Positions 1,369 to 39,472 of a stretch of DNA of 39,472 nt are shown here, one piece after another. Source of the stretch: a virus (Duplodnaviria > Heunggongvirae > Uroviricota > Caudoviricetes). Where the stretch lies: IMG/VR virus record IMGVR_UViG_2690316086_000021, one strand, 5' to 3'. A program made the translations under genes and the position numbers. The notes beneath the pieces were generated by a model. The model saw only the letters and a program-made list of their open reading frames with translations, did no database searches and was not told where the DNA came from. Each line of letters opens with the position of its first letter. Within the stretch, counting starts at the first letter, position 1.

Positions 1369-1444
1369 GCCGATATAGCTCAGTTGGTAGAGCAGCGCAT
1401 TCGTAATGCGAAGGTCGTAGGTTCGACTCCTATTATCGGCACCA
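1369..1444 (+). tRNA. thrW: tRNA-Thr (anticodon CGU)
   Basis: 76-nt sequence GCCGATATAGCTCAGTTGGTAGAGCAGCGCATTCGTAATGCGAAGGTCGTAGGTTCGACTCCTATTATCGGCACCA with cloverleaf-compatible arms, anticodon loop ..TTCGTAA.. and 3' CCA; lies immediately upstream of an integrase gene. Confidence 0.9.
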
Positions 1445-1458
1445 TTTAAATCAATAAG

Positions 1459-13572: not shown

Positions 13573-14412
13573 TTATTTCTTTTTTTTATTACTTTCAGAT
13601 AATCGTCGGTTTAATGTGTATTTTATTTGGTTCCTAATCATTTTTTCAGGAATGTCATATTTGTCTAAGAATGATATTATTTCATCCTCGTCAAGCAATC
13701 CATTCTTTATAATTTCATCTATCTGTTTTTGTAGATACCAAACATCCTTCTGTTCTACAGGAGTTAAATTCATATGGCTATTTATGGAGTTGATAGTAGC
13801 ATCACGTTCAAGAACTCTAATCCTTTGATTTAATGAACGAGTGTTTTGTAATATTTCAGATAAAAGATCTTGTTCAGTACGTGGTTTTACTTCTTCAGTT
13901 GGAGGGTATTGATCTAAAGCTCGTTTAAAATTTTTTTCAAATTGCTCCCAGTATGTATTAAAAACTTGCTTTAGAATACGGTCATCTAAAGATTTATCGA
14001 CAAGACAATTGTTTATTGTCCTTACTAATTCCCAAACACTCTCTTTATTTGGCGTTGTGTGATTGAATTGAGCAAGTGGATCTTTTAAATCTTCTGGTTT
14101 TAAGTCAATCAAGAATGTACAAACTTTATTTGTTGAAAGTCCTTTTGCTAGTGCTCCTGTTTCAAACAAAATCCATGGTTTATTTTTATTTTCTTGTGTC
14201 AAACATACAATGCCGACAGATACATCTTTTAATTTATCATTAATTTCAGAGAACCATATAGCGCCACGATCAATATCTCTGGTTGAAATCCATGGCTGCG
14301 AAGCTTGGATAACACACTTCAGCCAGTCGCTAATAAGTTCTGCAACAGCTTGACTTCTTTGCCCAGACCAACTTATGAACACTTTCATTATGTACTCCAT
14401 GTAATCACTCAA
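13573..14412 (-). CDS. TIR-domain protein with uncharacterised C-terminal helical domain (candidate anti-phage defence gene); likely start at ATG 14388
   Basis: N-terminus MKVFISWSGQRSQAVAELISDWL..GIVCLTQENKNKPWILFETGALAKG matches the TIR beta-A motif (VFISxS) and a W(I/C)LxE-type putative catalytic Glu. ATG 14388 has GGAG at 6-nt spacing; the track start at 14412 is a TTG. Visibly AT-rich; opposite strand to neighbours. Confidence 0.7.
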   Translation of the reverse strand: MSDYMEYIMKVFISWSGQRSQAVAELISDWLKCVIQASQPWISTRDIDRGAIWFSEINDKLKDVSVGIVCLTQENKNKPWILFETGALAKGLSTNKVCTFLIDLKPEDLKDPLAQFNHTTPNKESVWELVRTINNCLVDKSLDDRILKQVFNTYWEQFEKNFKRALDQYPPTEEVKPRTEQDLLSEILQNTRSLNQRIRVLERDATINSINSHMNLTPVEQKDVWYLQKQIDEIIKNGLLDEDEIISFLDKYDIPEKMIRNQIKYTLNRRLSESNKKKK

Positions 14413-15981: not shown

Positions 15982-16275
15982 TTATTGTGAGCAATACACA
16001 CGTGCTTCCAGCGGAGTATAAATGCCTAAAGTAATAAAACCGAGCAATCCATTTACGAATGTTTGCTGGGTTTCTGTTTTAACCACATTTTCTGCGCCGC
16101 CACAAATTTTGGCTGCATCAACAGTTTTCTCCTGTCCAATTCCCGAAACGAAGAAATGATGGGTGATGGTTTCCTTTGGTGTTACTGCTGTCGGTTTGTT
16201 TCCAACAGTAAACGTCTGTTGAGCACATCCTGTAATAAGCATTGCCAGAGCGGCAGAAAACAACATTTTTTTCAT
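15982..16275 (-). CDS. bor: Bor lipoprotein (serum-resistance lipoprotein of lambda)
   Basis: From ATG 16275: MKKMLFSAALAMLITGCAQQTFTV..KICGGAENVVKTETQQTFVNGLLGFITLGIYTPLEARVYCSQ, near-identical to recalled lambda Bor; the track's longer start is trimmed. Confidence 0.88.
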   Translation of the reverse strand: MKKMLFSAALAMLITGCAQQTFTVGNKPTAVTPKETITHHFFVSGIGQEKTVDAAKICGGAENVVKTETQQTFVNGLLGFITLGIYTPLEARVYCSQ

Positions 16276-16455
16276 CTTATTATCCTGCATTGTTAAAAAC
16301 GGCAGAATCCTATGTGACAACAATTAAACGATAGTTAAATGGATTGATGAAAATTAAAACTATATAGGTGTACGGTCAGACTATTGGAGGTAGTCAGGAT
16401 TTGAATGTCAGTCTGTTGTCGGCATTCTGGCAATGCAATTTGGATAAAGCGGGGA

Positions 16456-32080: not shown

Positions 32081-32505
32081 TGGAACTGTGGCTGACGGTG
32101 AACGGTAAACGCACCTGCGCCAGCGCACCGCTGGATCCGCTGACCCGCGCCGTGGTGATTTCCCTGTTTACCTGGCGGCGGGCGGAGCCTGATGACAACG
32201 CCGACGTCCCGATGGGATGGTGGGGGGATACCTGGCCTGCGGTACAGAATGACCGTTACGGCTCCCGGCTGTGGCTGCTTCAGCGCAGCAAACTGACCAA
32301 TCAGCTGGTGCTGACGGTAAGGGGGTATATCCGCGAATGCCTGCAATGGATGATTGATGACGGCGTGGTGTCCCGTATTGATCTGGATATCCGCCGCACC
32401 GGGATTAATGAACTGGGTAACAGTATCACTCTCTGGCGTCGTGACGGACCGGTAATGATTTCTTTTGATGATCTGTGGAGTGCGATAACGCATGGCGGAC
32501 AGTGA
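32077..32505 (+). CDS. Baseplate protein (Mu gp46 / gp25-like)
   Basis: 142-aa ORF in conserved order. Confidence 0.65.
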   Translation: MMELWLTVNGKRTCASAPLDPLTRAVVISLFTWRRAEPDDNADVPMGWWGDTWPAVQNDRYGSRLWLLQRSKLTNQLVLTVRGYIRECLQWMIDDGVVSRIDLDIRRTGINELGNSITLWRRDGPVMISFDDLWSAITHGGQ

Positions 32506-33550
32506 ATTTCAGCGCCCGACGCTGGCAGAAAATATCAGTATGCTCCGTAACGATTTATTCGCCAGGCTGGACGTCAGCGACACGCTCCGGCGCATGGATG
32601 AAGACGTGCGGGCAAAGGTGTATGCGGCGGCGCTGCATACGGTTTACGGTTACATCGATTATCTGGCAATGAACATGCTTCCTGACCTGTGCGATGAGTC
32701 CTGGCTGGCGCGACATGCTGCGATGAAACGGTGTCCGCGCAAGGGGGCCACGGCTGCCAGCGGGTATATGCGCTGGGAAGGTGTCAGCGATGGCCTGAAA
32801 GTGACTGCCGGGAGTGTTATTCAGCGCGATGACCTGGTTCAGTACACGGCAACTGCCGATGCAACCAGCTCCGGTGGTGTCCTGCGCGTGCCGATCGCCT
32901 GCTCAAGTGCAGGCGCGGTCGGTAACGCTGACGACGGTACGGCATTAATCCTGGTCACGCCGGTGAATGGTCTGCCGTCTTCCGGTGTGGCTGACACTCT
33001 GACAGGCGGATTTGATACTGAAGAGCTGGAAACGTGGCGCGCCCGCGTCATTGAGCGGTATTACTGGACGCCGCAGGGCGGGGCTGACGGGGACTATGTC
33101 GTCTGGGCTAAAGAAGTGCCCGGCATTACCCGCGCATGGACATACCGCCACTGGATGGGAACGGGAACTGTCGGTGTGATGATTGCCGGCAGTGACCTGA
33201 TTAATCCCATTCCGGAAGAGTCAACGGAAACGGCAGTACGACAACACATCGAGCCACTGGCCCCGGTGGCAGGTTCTGATTTGTATGTGTTCAGGCCGGT
33301 GGCGCATACGGTGGATTTTCATATCCGCGTGACGCCGGACACACCGGAAATACGGGCTGCCATCACCGCCGAGTTGCGTTCGTTCCTGCTGCGTGATGGT
33401 TATCCGCAGGGAGAACTGAAGGTGTCACGTATCAGTGAAGCGATTTCCGGTGCGAACGGGGAATACAGCCATCAGTTGCTTGCCCCGGCGGACAATATCT
33501 CCATTGCAAAAAATGAGCTGGCAGTTCTGGGGACGATTTCATGGACGTGA
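32492..33550 (+). CDS. Baseplate J-like protein (Mu gp47-like)
   Basis: 352-aa ORF in conserved order. Confidence 0.75.
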
Positions 33551-34125
33551 CAAACGATGATTATATCCGTCTGTTGTCGGCACTGTTGCCGCCCGGTCCG
33601 GCGTGGTCAGTCAGCGATCCGGCGATTGCCGGTGCGGCACCGTCATTAACCCGCGTTCATCAGCGTGCGGATGCCCTGATGCGGGAGCTGGATCCGCGCA
33701 CCACCACTGAACTGATAAACCGCTGGGAGCGTCTGTGCGGTCTGCCGGATGAATGTATTCCCGCAGGGACACAAACCCTTCGCCAGCGTCAGCAACGGCT
33801 GGATGCGAAGGTTAATCTGGCGGGCGGCATCAATGAGGATTTTTACCTTGCACAGCTTGCTGCCCTGGGCAGACCAGACGCCACTATCACGCGATACGAT
33901 AAAAGCACGTTCACCTGCTCATCGGCCTGTACTGACGCAGTGAATGCGCCGGAATGGCGGTATTACTGGCAGGTCAACATGCCAGCCGCCACCAACACCA
34001 CCTGGATGACATGTGGCGATCCCTGTGATTCCGCACTGCGTATCTGGGGCGACACCGTTGTCGAGTGCGTGCTTAACAAACTCTGCCCTTCGCATACCTA
34101 CGTAATTTTTAAATATCTGGAGTAA
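33541..34125 (+). CDS. Tail protein (Mu gp48-like, DUF2313-like)
   Basis: 194-aa ORF between baseplate J and the tail fiber. Confidence 0.6.
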
Positions 34126-34128
34126 TCC

Positions 34129-34920
34129 ATGCATCGTATAGACACGAAAACCGCGCAGAAGGATAAGTTCGGCGCGGGTAAGAACGGTTTTACCCGTGGT
34201 AACCCCCAAACCGGCACACCTGCCACCGATCTGGATGATGACTACTTTGACATGTTGCAGGAAGAACTTTGTAGCGTGGTGGAGGCCTCCGGTGCCAGCC
34301 TGGAGAAAGGGCGGCATGACCAGCTGCTTACCGCACTTCGTGCGCTGCTGTTAAGCCGCAAGAATCCGTTTGGCGATATCAAATCGGATGGCACAGTGCA
34401 AACGGCTCTCGAAAACCTTGGTTTAGGAGAAGCGGCGAAAAGGGATGTGGGCACGACAGTCGGAACCGTTGCCGCTGGTGATGATTTACGCATAACAGGA
34501 GCACTTCAAAAGGCAAATAATCTTTATGAGTTAACAAATAAATCTGATGCAAGAGCTAATCTTGGGTTAGGAACCGTTGCAACAAAAAACGTGGGAAATA
34601 GTGCTGGGCAAATACCTGATATGTCTTACTGGTCTTCACCGGCAGGCGGAATTAATTTCCCGAATGGGTTCCAGATGCGATTCGGGACTATCGCTGGTAC
34701 TGGTGGAAAATTATTTTCTACGCCATTTACAAATCAGTGCTATGGCATTGTTTTCGGACAAACATATGGAGCCAACTACTGGATGTTCAGCCCGATGTAC
34801 AGAGCATCTGATCTGAGTAATACCAGTTTTGCATTCATTAACAAAGCCTGGTCTGGCGTTCCGGGGGTAGGTTCTCAGGACGCTGGTGAATCAGTTTTTT
34901 ATATTGCAGTAGGGTATTAA
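34129..34920 (+). CDS. Tail fiber protein (constant N-terminus + currently expressed variable C-terminus)
   Basis: N-terminus ..[27 protein letters not shown].. is the conserved tail-fiber N-terminal motif; the crossover site lies inside the gene at about 34406..34432; the 3' part is visibly AT-rich. Confidence 0.72.
34406..34432. repeat. Left recombination site of the invertible tail-fiber segment (hix/gix-like)
   Basis: CTCTCGAAAACCTTGGTTTAGGAGAAG contains the GAAAACC..GGTTT core typical of Hin/Gin sites and is repeated in inverted orientation at 36384..36408. Confidence 0.6.
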
Positions 34921-34921
34921 T

Positions 34922-35365
34922 ATGGAAATGGTTTATAGCGCCTCAAATAATAGTTTTTTCGCTAAAAATGATGTGGCGAAATATGAACAGGCCGGATGGG
35001 AACTTGCTGATATTGTCGAAGTGACATATGACACTTACCTGGAATTTATTGAAGACAGAACGTTGCAAGGGAAAGTACGCATCGCGGGTGATGATGGCCT
35101 TCCCACCTGGGGGGAAATTCCACCGCCAACTCATGAGGAACAAATTGCCGCAGCCGAACTGGAAAAGCAGCAATTGATTAATCAGGTCAACGAATACATA
35201 TACAGTAAGCAATGGCCTGGTAAAGCAGCGATTGGTCGCCTGAAAGGTGAGGAACTGGCGCAATATAATTTGTGGCTGGATTATCTGGACGTACTGGAGC
35301 TGGTCGATACTTCCGGTGCGCCAGATATTGAATGGCCTACGCCTCCGGCAGTTCAGGCCAGATGA
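34922..35365 (+). CDS. Tail fiber assembly protein (Tfa)
   Basis: 147-aa ORF with typical Tfa N-terminus (MEMVYSASNNSFFAKNDV..). Confidence 0.72.
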   Translation: MEMVYSASNNSFFAKNDVAKYEQAGWELADIVEVTYDTYLEFIEDRTLQGKVRIAGDDGLPTWGEIPPPTHEEQIAAAELEKQQLINQVNEYIYSKQWPGKAAIGRLKGEELAQYNLWLDYLDVLELVDTSGAPDIEWPTPPAVQAR

Positions 35366-35930
35366 CATCCGGCGCGGTGCTCGTATCTGTTGCCGTCACC
35401 GCGTCAATGTAATCAAGCACGGCGTTAAGCCGGGTGGTTTCTGCCTGCGTCAGCTTCCGCCCGGCCTGTAATTTCAGCTGAATCAGGCTGATGGAAGCCA
35501 TTGCAGCATCAATCAGTGACTGGCGCTGTGCTTCTGCCGCTTCTACTGCGGCACCGTGTTGTGCCTCAGTATCTGTCACCCATTTCTCACCATCCCATTT
35601 ATCATATGGCGTTAACGGTGAAAGCGTGACATAACCGTTTTTGATGGCACCGATATAATCCACTGTAACAGCTGCGCCATTTTCGATTGAGTAAACAGTC
35701 TCATTGCGATGGTCTTCTTCATGGCTCCATCCCTTACCCGTAAATACTGCCACTTTTCCCGGAATGTTTTCGCCAGGGTCAATACCAGTGGAACAGGCGG
35801 GCATACTTACGCCAGTATTAATATATTCATCAGACCAGCCCGTATATTCATACGTTACTGCATCATAATAAAAACAACGCATATCACCCGGCACTGTAGC
35901 CAGTCCATTTTCATCAAAAACAGGTTTCAT
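35337..35930 (-). CDS. Alternative tail fiber assembly protein (inverted orientation, Tfa')
   Basis: 197-aa minus-strand ORF; its C-terminus (..DYIDAVTATDTSTAPDVIWPELP) parallels the plus-strand Tfa C-terminus (..DVLELVDTSGAPDIEWPTPP). Confidence 0.68.
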   Translation of the reverse strand: MKPVFDENGLATVPGDMRCFYYDAVTYEYTGWSDEYINTGVSMPACSTGIDPGENIPGKVAVFTGKGWSHEEDHRNETVYSIENGAAVTVDYIGAIKNGYVTLSPLTPYDKWDGEKWVTDTEAQHGAAVEAAEAQRQSLIDAAMASISLIQLKLQAGRKLTQAETTRLNAVLDYIDAVTATDTSTAPDVIWPELPEA

Positions 35931-36439
35931 TATTTAGCCCTTACTAAAAAGTTGAATGCGATGTTACGGGGACGCGTTTCAGTACCGCCTGGGTTTTGAA
36001 AAGCGGGCAAAGCACTTCCAGCCGGCTGACTAACGCCGCTGGTATATAATGGAGAAGCATTCGAAACGGTGCCAAACACTACATTACTGCCACTTCCATT
36101 TAGCCCTAAAATTTTATGCTCGTGCGTTTTGAAATCGTCTGATTGTGCGGAAAGTAATGCACGGCCACTGTCAACGCCACGGCCATCATCCCAGATACGA
36201 ATAAATTCACCGCGTGCTTCAGGCAGTGTTAATGCAGGAAACACCAGAGCGAGTTTTGGATAATTCGACGCTGAGAATGTGGCTCCGTTGAACTTCAGAA
36301 ACACCATACTGGACCAGCTGTCGATTACAGTATTTGGCATTGCAGCGGACGGCCAGAAGAACGGAACGCCAATAGCTGGAGCACCTTCTCCCAAACCAAC
36401 ATTTATGAAAATGCAGAAATAACGAGCAAATGGCATCAT
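35930..36439 (-). CDS. Alternative tail fiber C-terminal segment (silent until inversion)
   Basis: Minus-strand ORF ending ..RNIAFNFLVRAK (conserved fiber C-terminal motif); shares the junction peptide GLGE with the expressed fiber at the recombination site. Confidence 0.6.
   Translation of the reverse strand: MMPFARYFCIFINVGLGEGAPAIGVPFFWPSAAMPNTVIDSWSSMVFLKFNGATFSASNYPKLALVFPALTLPEARGEFIRIWDDGRGVDSGRALLSAQSDDFKTHEHKILGLNGSGSNVVFGTVSNASPLYTSGVSQPAGSALPAFQNPGGTETRPRNIAFNFLVRAK
36384..36408. repeat. Right recombination site of the invertible segment (inverted copy)
   Basis: The reverse complement TTCATAAATGTTGGTTTGGGAGAAG matches the left site over TTGGTTT(A/G)GGAGAAG. Confidence 0.55.
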
Positions 36440-36465
36440 TCCTGCTTTTGCTAGGGAGATCTACC

Positions 36466-36594
36466 ATGCTTATTGGCTATGTACGTGTGTCAACAAATGA
36501 CCAGAACACAGATCTACAACGTAATGCGCTGAACTGTGCAGGATGCGAGCTGATTTTTGAAGACAAGATAAGCGGTACAAAGTCCGAAACCTAG
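36466..36594 (+). pseudogene. Truncated DNA invertase (Gin/Pin/Hin serine recombinase), first 42 codons only
   Basis: MLIGYVRVSTNDQNTDLQRNALNCAGCELIFEDKISGTKSET then stop; N-terminal catalytic-serine motif (YVRVSTNDQ) present, but the rest of the roughly 190-aa enzyme is missing. Confidence 0.78.
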
Positions 36595-36641
36595 GGCTGA
36601 CACTGCTGTTCTTGTTGCAAATTAAAGGATTTAATAGTGAG

Positions 36642-36669
36642 TAGCGGCCTTACTAATGTAAGGCCGCTA
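36642..36669. terminator. Hairpin between the invertase remnant and the GmrSD-like gene
   Basis: TAGCGGCCTTA-ctaat-TAAGGCCGCTA perfect inverted repeat followed by T-rich sequence. Confidence 0.45.
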
Positions 36670-36689
36670 TAATCATTTTATTAATTGCA

Positions 36690-38639
36690 TTAATCGTGTT
36701 TTGGCCATACTTTCAATGCAATTTCCCCCAACATTTTACCCCGCTCCAGGATTTCATCCTCATCCCATTTATCCTTAACTATAAGTGGAATGTTCAGTCG
36801 TAGATTGGTGTGGACGATGAGAGCATCACGTTTTTTCAGAAATACAGCATTCTGAACAGAACGGTTTACGCTAAGGTTAAGCAAAGTTAGATTTCCCAAC
36901 GTAGCTATCGCTTGTTGCCGTTTCCTTACCAGTAGCTGTTCTGGGGTAAGATCGGTTCCAGACAGAACAATTTGGTTCAATACCGTAGCATCTGAATTTG
37001 TCACCATATGACCATTTTCGAGAGGCCAACAGGAATACCAACTTTGAGGCATAAGATGATCGATATCGAGGTTAGAAAGATTTGGAACATCAGGCTTCTC
37101 TGTCTTCACTTGGCGACAAAGTTCTCTTTCAAGTTCCGTTAACATTGAGCGCATTTTCGGTGCGTCGAGCCTGCCAGGATAAAGTGGAGCATTGATGCAA
37201 GCGTTGAGAAATTCTGAGTCCCCAGGCCAACGTGAGGCTTCGCCATTTAAGCTATTGAGGATATTACGTAACTCAACACTGGAAATTTCTGTTTTAGACA
37301 AGTGCCGCAATACATTCATAAATACATTGTTGTAATTCTTTGGCGTCAGGCCACATACGGCTCTTCGTACTACGTAGGAGACAAGATCATTATACATGGC
37401 TGCTTTCTCATCATCGGCGATGTTAGCTATCGAAATGAACAAAGCAAGCGGATAAAGTGTCGTCACATCATAGGCTGCGATGCGATGTCCAAAGTGTGAG
37501 ATGGGGGTTGTGCCAAAACCACCAACCAATTCTTTATATTGTGATGCATATTGTTTGAGGCGCTTTACTTGCAGATCTGCTCGTTGTGAAGGCAAGTCCT
37601 TACTTACATAATCACGATACTCATTGTAAAGACGAGACAGATCGATTTCACGTTGCCTTTCTGATTGCAATGTTGCATGCACTAGCCACTCCATGCGTGG
37701 TTTATTAATACGACCACGACGTTGTCTTTCTGACCAGTACGTATCTTCAAAGATCTTCCACTCATTCTCATATAATTCAACAGCATTAATATTTTCATGT
37801 TCAGCGCACATAAAAATATAATTGCGAATAAGATCTGTGGCATGAAGTTCCGCACCTCTGCCATTTAATGTTTCAAAAATTATTTGAGCGTCATCTTCAG
37901 CCTCGAGAAATATGCTTACTAGTTTCAGATCCGTCAAGACAGCCTCAATTAATGCTACAGCATTTTCTCGTGGTGAGTGATTTTCTATTTTAATCCACTT
38001 TATAAAGGCTTCAGTAAAAAAACATAATGCTTCTAGTGATGGCGGGTGATTAAAATGCTTACGCAACGTACCATGCTGCGTGAAACTATCAGAGAATACA
38101 TTCCGGATATCGTCAATATTTTCAACATTAAAACTTTGAATAAAATGAGTTTGATCCCGAAAAGTTGGCCACAGTTTGAAGCGCTCTACTTCTTTATTTC
38201 GCATTGTGTCTTCGTTTGAGTTTTTCAGGCAAGACGAAATGAGAGGCTCTAAGTAGGAAAGATCTGTTGCACGTAATGCTAATCGGATGGATGCCAGAAC
38301 ATATTGAAGAGTGGTCAATCGTTGCTGACCATCAATAATATGTATGGAATCTACACCGAATAATCCTTTTTTTGGTTGAGGTTCCAGTACAACTGCACCA
38401 AGGAAATGGGGAGTTGGTTTTGTACCCGAGAGCCGGGATTGTGCTTTCTCTAGGATATCCTCCAGTAGAGCTGACCATTGGTTTCGCTGAGTCCATACAT
38501 AGGCACGTTGATAGAATGGAACACAGTATTGTCGGCGGTCTTGAAAAAGTTGTTGGACAGTTAGCGTCTCGGATTTCATGGTATACCTGTAAGCGACATT
38601 GTACAAAAGTGAGGAGTTAATCTGATTTAGAACAATCAT
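36690..38639 (-). CDS. GmrSD-like type IV (modification-dependent) restriction endonuclease: N-terminal DUF262 + C-terminal DUF1524
   Basis: N-terminal ..FYQRAYVW....IIDGQQRLTTL.. (DUF262 DGQQR motif) and C-terminal ..DIDHLMPQSW.. region (DUF1524 His-Me finger-like); visibly AT-rich; start is either 38639 or ATG 38579. Confidence 0.75.
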   Translation of the reverse strand: MIVLNQINSSLLYNVAYRYTMKSETLTVQQLFQDRRQYCVPFYQRAYVWTQRNQWSALLEDILEKAQSRLSGTKPTPHFLGAVVLEPQPKKGLFGVDSIHIIDGQQRLTTLQYVLASIRLALRATDLSYLEPLISSCLKNSNEDTMRNKEVERFKLWPTFRDQTHFIQSFNVENIDDIRNVFSDSFTQHGTLRKHFNHPPSLEALCFFTEAFIKWIKIENHSPRENAVALIEAVLTDLKLVSIFLEAEDDAQIIFETLNGRGAELHATDLIRNYIFMCAEHENINAVELYENEWKIFEDTYWSERQRRGRINKPRMEWLVHATLQSERQREIDLSRLYNEYRDYVSKDLPSQRADLQVKRLKQYASQYKELVGGFGTTPISHFGHRIAAYDVTTLYPLALFISIANIADDEKAAMYNDLVSYVVRRAVCGLTPKNYNNVFMNVLRHLSKTEISSVELRNILNSLNGEASRWPGDSEFLNACINAPLYPGRLDAPKMRSMLTELERELCRQVKTEKPDVPNLSNLDIDHLMPQSWYSCWPLENGHMVTNSDATVLNQIVLSGTDLTPEQLLVRKRQQAIATLGNLTLLNLSVNRSVQNAVFLKKRDALIVHTNLRLNIPLIVKDKWDEDEILERGKMLGEIALKVWPKHD

Positions 38640-39039
38640 TTTATGTTGCTATGATACAACGTATTTGTTACCGGTTAAGTAAAAAACGCGTCTGAACGCT
38701 GACGTTTTAGGGCTTTACTAGTTATTCTTTCTTATCTCTTCATCATCCCATCGGCATCCTGTCGAGGTTGTTGACTTGTTGTTATTTATTTTGTTTAGGC
38801 GCTGTTTAATTATTATTGATGGGACTGGTGGTGAGAGGTGATTGAAACCGCAGACAGGTCGTATGCAAGACGTGCTGCGGTTGGCTGATGCACTTTTGAT
38901 AGTGCAAGTATTGAATGATTGCCAGTCACAGCGGATTGTACTTAGGTAATATGACGGTTCAAGGCGTTTAAACTGAAACCATCCACATATCAGTCTCTTC
39001 AAACATTTCCTAAATCGTTCGGCTTATCTGTTCTTTCTC

Positions 39040-39472
39040 ACGTTTGCTGACGTCAGTGCTGATTGCCGGCAGTGTCATCATCGGTTTTACACGATACCCT
39101 TTGCGTTGAACGAGTCGTACTACTGTAACAACGCGTCGGTGAAGCTGCTCATCCCGACACAGGACAGTCGGGATATCATTGCAGTAGCAACGGGGAGTCT
39201 GGATGCAATATGGAAAGACGGACACCGATATCAGAAAGCCGGGGTAATGCTGGGGGACTTCTTCAGTCAGAGCATGCCCTAACCTATTCGACGATAACGC
39301 GCTGGGTCCTGGGAGCGAAAAGTTAATGAGCGTGCTGGAGCACCTCAACGCAAAAGACGGGAAGGAAACACTCTGTTTCGCTGGGCAGGGCATTCAGCAG
39401 CAGTGGCAGATGAAACGCGAGATATTTTCGCACCGGTATACAACTAGATTTTCTGGCATTTTAGGTGGTTAG
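39040..39472 (+). pseudogene. umuC-like (Y-family polymerase V subunit) 3' remnant, frameshifted
   Basis: Two consecutive frames give ..DIIAVATGSLDAIWKDGHRYQKAGVMLGDFFSQ then NLFDDNALGPGSEKLMSVLEHLNAKDGKETLCFAGQGIQQQWQMKREIFSHRYTTR.., which I recognise as the UmuC/MucB C-terminus; frameshift near 39280; the 5' two-thirds of the gene are absent. Confidence 0.5.

Follow-up and report, generated by a model that had tools for sequence, protein, structure and literature searches.

The window analyzed here, a stretch of 39,472 nucleotides, contains a prophage of Escherichia coli. The prophage is a myovirus of the e14/SfV type, integrated at the tRNA-Thr gene beside proA. Because PHROGs matches identify an integrase, a large terminase, a major capsid protein, a sheath, and a tape measure among the products encoded in the window, the prophage looks complete. 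The region from 30 to 36.6 kb is the tail end of the prophage and encodes Mu-like baseplate proteins, including a Baseplate_J protein (32492–33550) and a Mu Gp48/YmfQ protein (33541–34125), both assigned by Pfam.

The gene that follows encodes the tail fiber and is divided into a constant and a variable part. The constant 5′ part, Sc (34129..34417, plus strand), comprises about 97 codons, ends in the residues ENLGLGE, and lies outside the invertible segment (34418..36399), which measures 1,982 bp from core to core and 1,952 bp between the repeat arms. In the present orientation Sc is joined to the variable part Sv, and the complete gene (34129..34920, plus strand) specifies a fiber of 263 residues that matches the phrog_1396 tail fiber protein (E = 9e-83), although a Pfam search with this protein returned no match. 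Over its N-terminal 109 residues the fiber shares 95% identity with StfP of e14. The fiber gene is followed on the same strand by a gene for a fiber assembly chaperone of 147 residues (34922..35365; Pfam Caudo_TAP, E = 2e-29; phrog_188).

A second cassette occupies the minus strand. Its chaperone gene (35337..35930, minus strand), which is silent in the present orientation, encodes 197 residues that match Caudo_TAP (E = 1.8e-27) and phrog_105 and display 63% identity to TfaE of e14. The adjoining alternative fiber 3′ part, Sv′ (35930..36399, minus strand), has no 5′ end of its own; the ATG, at 36439, is outside the segment. After inversion Sv′ would complete a fiber of 252 residues. The fusion computed for this state matches the tail fiber families phrog_1858, phrog_3100, and phrog_523, and the annotation of E. 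coli strain ML775 contains the same gene of 759 nt. In the PHROGs matches the two fiber versions have residues 1 to about 100 in common, and their C-termini differ. The segment therefore holds alternative fiber C-termini together with their paired chaperones, and the constant N-terminus lies outside it. Related fiber cassettes are found at several places in many genomes, with a median of two places per genome.

This anatomy bears out the original prediction of a G-segment-like switch, in which a constant fiber N-terminus would serve two opposed fiber-plus-chaperone cassettes: both chaperones belong to Caudo_TAP, and both fibers match PHROGs families. The accompanying term “shufflon” was ill chosen. 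Shufflons of the R64 type consist of four or more short repeats that undergo multiple inversions catalyzed by the tyrosine recombinase Rci, and their target is pilV. The present locus has a phage fiber as its target, and the term is a misnomer for a system with just two sites and the remnant of a serine (Resolvase-family) enzyme as its recombinase.

The ends of the segment are defined by two recombination sites of 26 bp, whose boundaries were set by register with the hix, gix, cix, and pix sites. The left site (34406–34431) reads CTCTCGAAAACC TT GGTTTAGGAGAA, with its central dinucleotide at 34418–34419; the right site (36386–36411) reads TTCTCCCAAACC AA CATTTATGAAAA, with its central dinucleotide at 36398–36399. 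The two sites are in opposed orientation and have one central dinucleotide, read oppositely as TT on the left and AA on the right. Their e14 counterparts, CTCTCGAAAACC TT GGTTTGGGAGAA and TTCTCCCAAACC AA CGTTTATGAAAA, differ from them by one base per side, so that 25 of 26 positions match at the left site and 25 of 26 at the right. The gix sites of Mu, including gixL, and the cix sites of P1 align in the same register. The assignment to the Hin/Gin type made beforehand is thus sustained, both by these alignments and by the AAACC/GGTTT half-site elements. The repeat coordinates first proposed were right to one base on the left and off by two to three bases on the right. The peptide GLGE, which had been noticed at the junction of both fiber variants, is indeed encoded by the repeat on both strands. 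The outer half of the right site is weak: by manual count about 7 of its 12 positions agree with the corresponding half-site of Mu gixR.

Considered as a bare inverted repeat, the pair of sites is unremarkable and not significant. The true complementarity between them extends over 15 nt with one mismatch (34418–34432 and 36385–36399), and the longest exact run is 7 nt. A generic inverted-repeat search with a 9-nt seed did not find the pair; with a 7-nt seed it ranked fourth among 15 similar pairs within 2.2 kb. Repeat statistics alone cannot carry the finding, and motif-based and comparative tests are therefore needed. The motif TTCTCCNAAACCAA, which combines the inner half-site with the core, has exactly two occurrences in the 39-kb window, inverted relative to each other, and was matched in none of 100 shuffles. 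A search of the window for extra crossover sites yielded a single near-match at chance level (34748–34761), with two mismatches, one of them in AAACC.

Beyond the right site lies what is left of the invertase gene pin (36466..36594, plus strand), an open reading frame of 42 codons. Its native part ends at 36585, after which two foreign codons lead to a stop. Homology to the intact gene breaks off at 36585/36586, after codon 40 (nucleotide 120). Up to that point the remnant is closely similar to its relatives: residues 1–40 are identical to those of the intact 184-residue PinE of strain E4, and the first 120 nucleotides agree with e14 pinE at 117 positions. The Pfam match to the Resolvase N-terminal domain covers residues 3–41 only. 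The cognate invertase is thus truncated, as had been proposed, with only 40 of about 184 codons remaining. The catalytic Ser9 is among the residues kept; most of the catalytic domain, the oligomerization helix, and the DNA-binding domain are missing. With these parts lost, the pin product cannot be active. No intact serine invertase gene lies adjacent to the segment, and the locus by itself is no complete system but a substrate for this enzyme family.

The 3′ four-fifths of pin were displaced by acquisition of a restriction gene of the GmrSD type (DUF262/DUF1524). This gene (36690..38639, minus strand) encodes 649 residues, with matches to GmrSD_N (E = 7e-34) and GmrSD_C (E = 6e-20). A hairpin can be discerned by eye at about 36640–36672, between the pin remnant and the GmrSD gene. 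When the junction of pin and GmrSD was used as a query of 201 nt, at least 80% of it was covered in 304 of 5,426 complete E. coli genomes, among them UTI89, S88, NU14, IHE3034, APEC O1, and ATCC 11775. The truncated allele appears to be of sufficient age for wide dispersal and probably arose in a single event.

The surviving part of pin retains in full the equivalent of the recombinational enhancer (36484..36555). In the GenBank record of P1 the Cin enhancer is annotated at nucleotides 19–90 of cin, and the same interval of the invertase gene in the window is identical to e14 pinE at 70 of 72 positions and to cin at 55 of 72. The stretch lies 85–157 bp from the right core and would be expected to act as an enhancer; that of Hin is about 100 bp from its site (PMC3798978). 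A match to the Fis consensus at nucleotides 71–85 of the invertase gene is conserved in pin, gin, and cin. A simple consensus scan recognized this one of the two expected Fis sites, and the second was absent from its output. Both recombination sites are intact, and the cis enhancer, to judge from its sequence, is probably intact as well; only the enzyme is missing.

Loss of the resident enzyme had suggested that the segment is probably locked. This view is contradicted at the population level by genomes that share the truncation. In E. coli O103 strain ML775 this prophage is found again, likewise at tRNA-Thr/proA and with pin truncated at the same point; it is 99.99% identical to the window over 39 kb. 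The flanks align in parallel, with 99.991% identity for window positions 1–34432 (34.4 kb) and 99.968% for 36385–39472 (3.1 kb), whereas 34418–36399 is 100% identical on the opposite strand, from TT core to AA core. Each flank alignment contains one mismatch that represents the variable base of the repeat, which travels with the segment, as deduced from the ends of the alignments. The two sequences are separated by a single substitution and a single indel over 37.5 kb, and their orientations are opposite. The exchange maps to the seven bases TTGGTTT, which include the core dinucleotide.

A second pair of strains leads to the same result. UTI89 and IHE3034 carry a related set of cassettes and the same truncation of pin as the window. 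Their flanks are 100% identical over 3,122 and 5,365 nt (about 8.5 kb in all), and the segment is exactly inverted between them. Since their repeat arms are identical, this pair places the exchange only somewhere within the repeat. The frequencies of the two states were assessed with 700-nt queries for the right junction, linked to the truncated pin and GmrSD, in the UTI89 form and in a synthetic inverted form. The UTI89 form was found in 79 genomes and the inverted form in 24, 23 of these at an identity of at least 99.9%. The orientation in which the window itself was assembled had no match in any complete E. coli genome. Because genomes with the identical truncation carry both orientations in otherwise identical sequence, inversion must postdate loss of the invertase. 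Core-to-core inversions have occurred since the truncation, and very recently relative to sequence divergence.

It is very likely, in our view, that the locus is a fiber switch of the e14 P type whose own invertase is dead, and that inversion of the orphan segment depends on the presence of some other invertase in the cell. The late operon would run through the constant 5′ part of the fiber gene into the 1,982-bp segment. In the present orientation its products would be the 263-residue fiber and the 147-residue chaperone; in the inverted orientation they would be the 252-residue fiber, with its different C-terminus, and the 197-residue chaperone. By analogy with the rest of the family, a serine DNA invertase would cut each 26-bp site at its central dinucleotide, AA/TT, with the help of Fis bound to an enhancer within the initial 90 bp of the gene for the invertase. 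Possible sources of the enzyme include a second prophage, a plasmid, and an infecting phage. An altered host range would be the expected consequence of the exchange of fibers.

Supply of the enzyme from elsewhere is plausible on general grounds. Gin, Cin, Pin, and Hin complement one another, and Fin acts on hix. The need for a recombinase in trans, which had also been foreseen, is supported, and inversion presumably proceeds by means of an invertase so supplied. A precedent is PinQ of prophage Qin, which inverts the P segment of e14 (PMC12529663); expression of PinQ from a plasmid brought inversion of this segment to 88% (PMC12529663), and in a pinE deletion of K-12 the segment was locked at native levels of PinQ (PMC12529663). 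The locked state of the deletion strain argues that flipping without the cognate enzyme is infrequent. Candidate sources were surveyed with chimeric queries, in which a strain-specific tag was combined with the 3′ part of pinE, the 3′ part of gin, and pinQ, and the matching places were counted per record. By this indirect count ML775 has one extra invertase-like place, and carriers of the ST95 type have from zero to four extra chromosomal places. In about half of the ST95-type carriers listed, blastn revealed no further chromosomal locus resembling pinE, gin, or pinQ, and either orientation is represented among these strains. Flipping is most likely episodic, taking place when an invertase is present, and not continuous.

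The most serious competing explanation is that the locus is a frozen relic, which no longer inverts in this strain, and that the two orientations are leftovers of rare events in the past. The dead cognate invertase, the locked pinE deletion of K-12 at native expression (PMC12529663), the many carriers in which no other chromosomal invertase-like locus is seen, and the uniform orientation of the segment in all four UTI89 assemblies are each in keeping with it. Against it, the window and ML775 form a near-clonal pair with opposite orientations, as do UTI89 and IHE3034, whose flanks are identical. The flips are thus very recent compared with sequence divergence, and the two states are each common (79 genomes against 24). 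On balance this explanation seems unlikely to us.

Inversion might also have arisen without site-specific recombination, through RecA-dependent recombination or a replication error between short inverted repeats. Inverted repeats can in principle allow inversions, and the locus itself does not encode an active invertase. RecA-dependent recombination, however, needs far more than a 7-nt exact match, which is the longest run in a repeat of only 15 nt with a mismatch. Moreover, the exchange between the window and ML775 falls in TTGGTTT, which contains the core, and the 14 comparable pairs of repeats in the same 2.2 kb are not inversion endpoints here. Such an origin is very improbable. It is harder still to believe that the opposite orientations are an assembly artifact or that the segment was replaced by homologous recombination with another prophage: related fiber cassettes do reside at several places in many genomes (median two), but an assembler cannot be misled by a repeat of 15 nt, the orientations recur in 24 and 79 independent complete genomes, and a donor would have to be 100% identical yet inverted, which itself presupposes inversion.

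The preferred interpretation, an orphan switch served in trans, can be carried a step further. The segment might be kept and not decaying, as a switch that is run from elsewhere and flips only when a foreign element brings an invertase. This extension is speculative, and we regard it as unlikely. If it were true, the type of fiber, or a host-protective product like StfE2 of e14, would be coupled to the arrival of foreign elements, and it would be for a functional reason, not by accident, that such a switch repeatedly comes together with a restriction gene, mcrA in e14 and GmrSD at the present locus.

The orphan switch accounts for a recurrent pattern in E. coli annotations, “phage tail protein, recombinase (partial), DUF262.” The fiber products annotated at such loci depend on the orientation that happened to be caught in the assembly. 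Such a switch is not frozen when its resident invertase is lost. That an orphan switch can flip matters for the prediction of prophage host range, for the use of these fibers in engineered phages and tailocins, and for the reading of inversion calls when genomes are compared.

Within the Hin/Gin/Cin/Pin family, the locus is identified by gene order and homology as the counterpart of the e14 P segment, the Pin system of K-12. The order of genes is the same, namely ymfQ, fiber, chaperone, chaperone′, fiber′, and pin, represented in K-12 by ymfQ, stfP, tfaP, tfaE (reverse), stfE (reverse), and pinE, followed by mcrA. The AA core is shared, as is the presence of a restriction gene just downstream of pin, mcrA in e14 and GmrSD here. 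The two loci differ in that pin is cut after codon 40 in the window, and the variable cassettes are divergent alleles, with protein identities of 42–63% to StfE, TfaE, and TfaP. The distance between the repeats is 1,952 bp here and 1,797 bp in e14. Furthermore, e14 is a cryptic prophage and a remnant, whereas the prophage described here appears complete.

More distant resemblances connect the locus with the G segment of Mu (Gin) and the C segment of P1 (Cin). All have a constant 5′ part of the fiber gene, two opposed sets of fiber 3′ part and chaperone, and 26-bp sites with AAACC and GGTTT half-sites. Each also has, or in the present case putatively retains, an enhancer within the 5′ coding region of a serine invertase gene. 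In Mu the core is GA/TC instead of AA/TT, and the cassettes of the window bear almost no similarity to those of Mu. The fibers of Mu and P1 are also much longer, at about 500 to 990 residues compared with 263 and 252 here. In P1, cin points toward the segment, whereas pin and gin point away from it. Unlike the invertases of Mu and P1, the one at the present locus is defective.

The Shigella phages SfV and SfIV resemble the prophage in their baseplate genes and in the constant 5′ part of the fiber gene, which are about 93–95% identical up to the left site. In SfV the homology stops just past the recombination site, where the match ends at window position 34446, and no invertible segment was seen in the match of SfV to the window.

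A functional parallel is the action of PinQ on the P segment of e14, which accounts for the way in which a segment without its own invertase can flip. At the locus described here a foreign invertase is indispensable, and this dependence is fixed in 304 of the 5,426 complete genomes. The mechanism is that of the textbook, and what is new is the set of cassette alleles and the orphaned, trans-dependent status of a P segment of the e14 type.

The left recombination site of the invertible tail-fibre segment (34406-34431) lies close to the point at which similarity to the Shigella phage SfV is lost. The SfV match over window 34000-34446 ends about 15 nt beyond this site, so that the left site also marks a boundary of fibre-module exchange between phages.

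Within the segment, the two chaperone genes converge and share 29 nt at their 3' ends (35337-35365), and the same overlap is seen in the cryptic prophage e14 of E. coli K-12, in UTI89 and in strain E4. The open reading frame of the silent fibre 3' part, the alternative C-terminus on the minus strand, occupies 35930-36439 (-) and continues across the right recombination site to an ATG at 36439, within the upstream region of the serine invertase gene pin. Annotations of other genomes treat this read-through frame as a separate "phage tail protein", 163-169 residues long, the N-terminus of which is probably an artefact of annotation.

The O103 strain ML775, which carries a near-identical prophage with the segment inverted, helps to place the prophage ends. 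A 56-nt stretch beside tRNA-Thr and proA (window 1399-1454) has a second copy in ML775, 98% identical and situated about 2.7 kb past the right end of the window. This stretch probably represents the att repeat, in which case the prophage reaches beyond the window and takes in the GmrSD region.

Several genes carried by the prophage were recognized through their ML775 counterparts, and for two of them the window coordinates are estimates mapped from the ML775 annotation. The first, at 13573-14412 (-), is annotated in ML775 as a TIR domain-containing protein; its neighbours there are the Q antiterminator on one side and the holin on the other, and it may be a defence gene carried by the prophage. 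The second, at 15982-16323 (-), corresponds to a gene that ML775 has annotated as iss (increased serum survival lipoprotein); this gene is associated with virulence and adjoins the lysis genes. At the right end, window 39010-39472 holds fragments of a umuC-like gene (DUF4113) together with, going by the ML775 annotation, dinI. Both are marked in ML775 as incomplete pseudogenes, and the fragments appear to be leftover SOS-related cargo within the prophage.

The 3' part of pin is replaced by a type IV restriction gene of the GmrSD type (DUF262/DUF1524; 36585-38639). The stretch from pin to the end of the prophage appears to be a hot spot for cargo genes with a role in defence. At the corresponding position 3' of pin, IS3, a GIY-YIG gene or a cytosine methyltransferase is found in other relatives, and e14 has mcrA where the window has the GmrSD-type gene.
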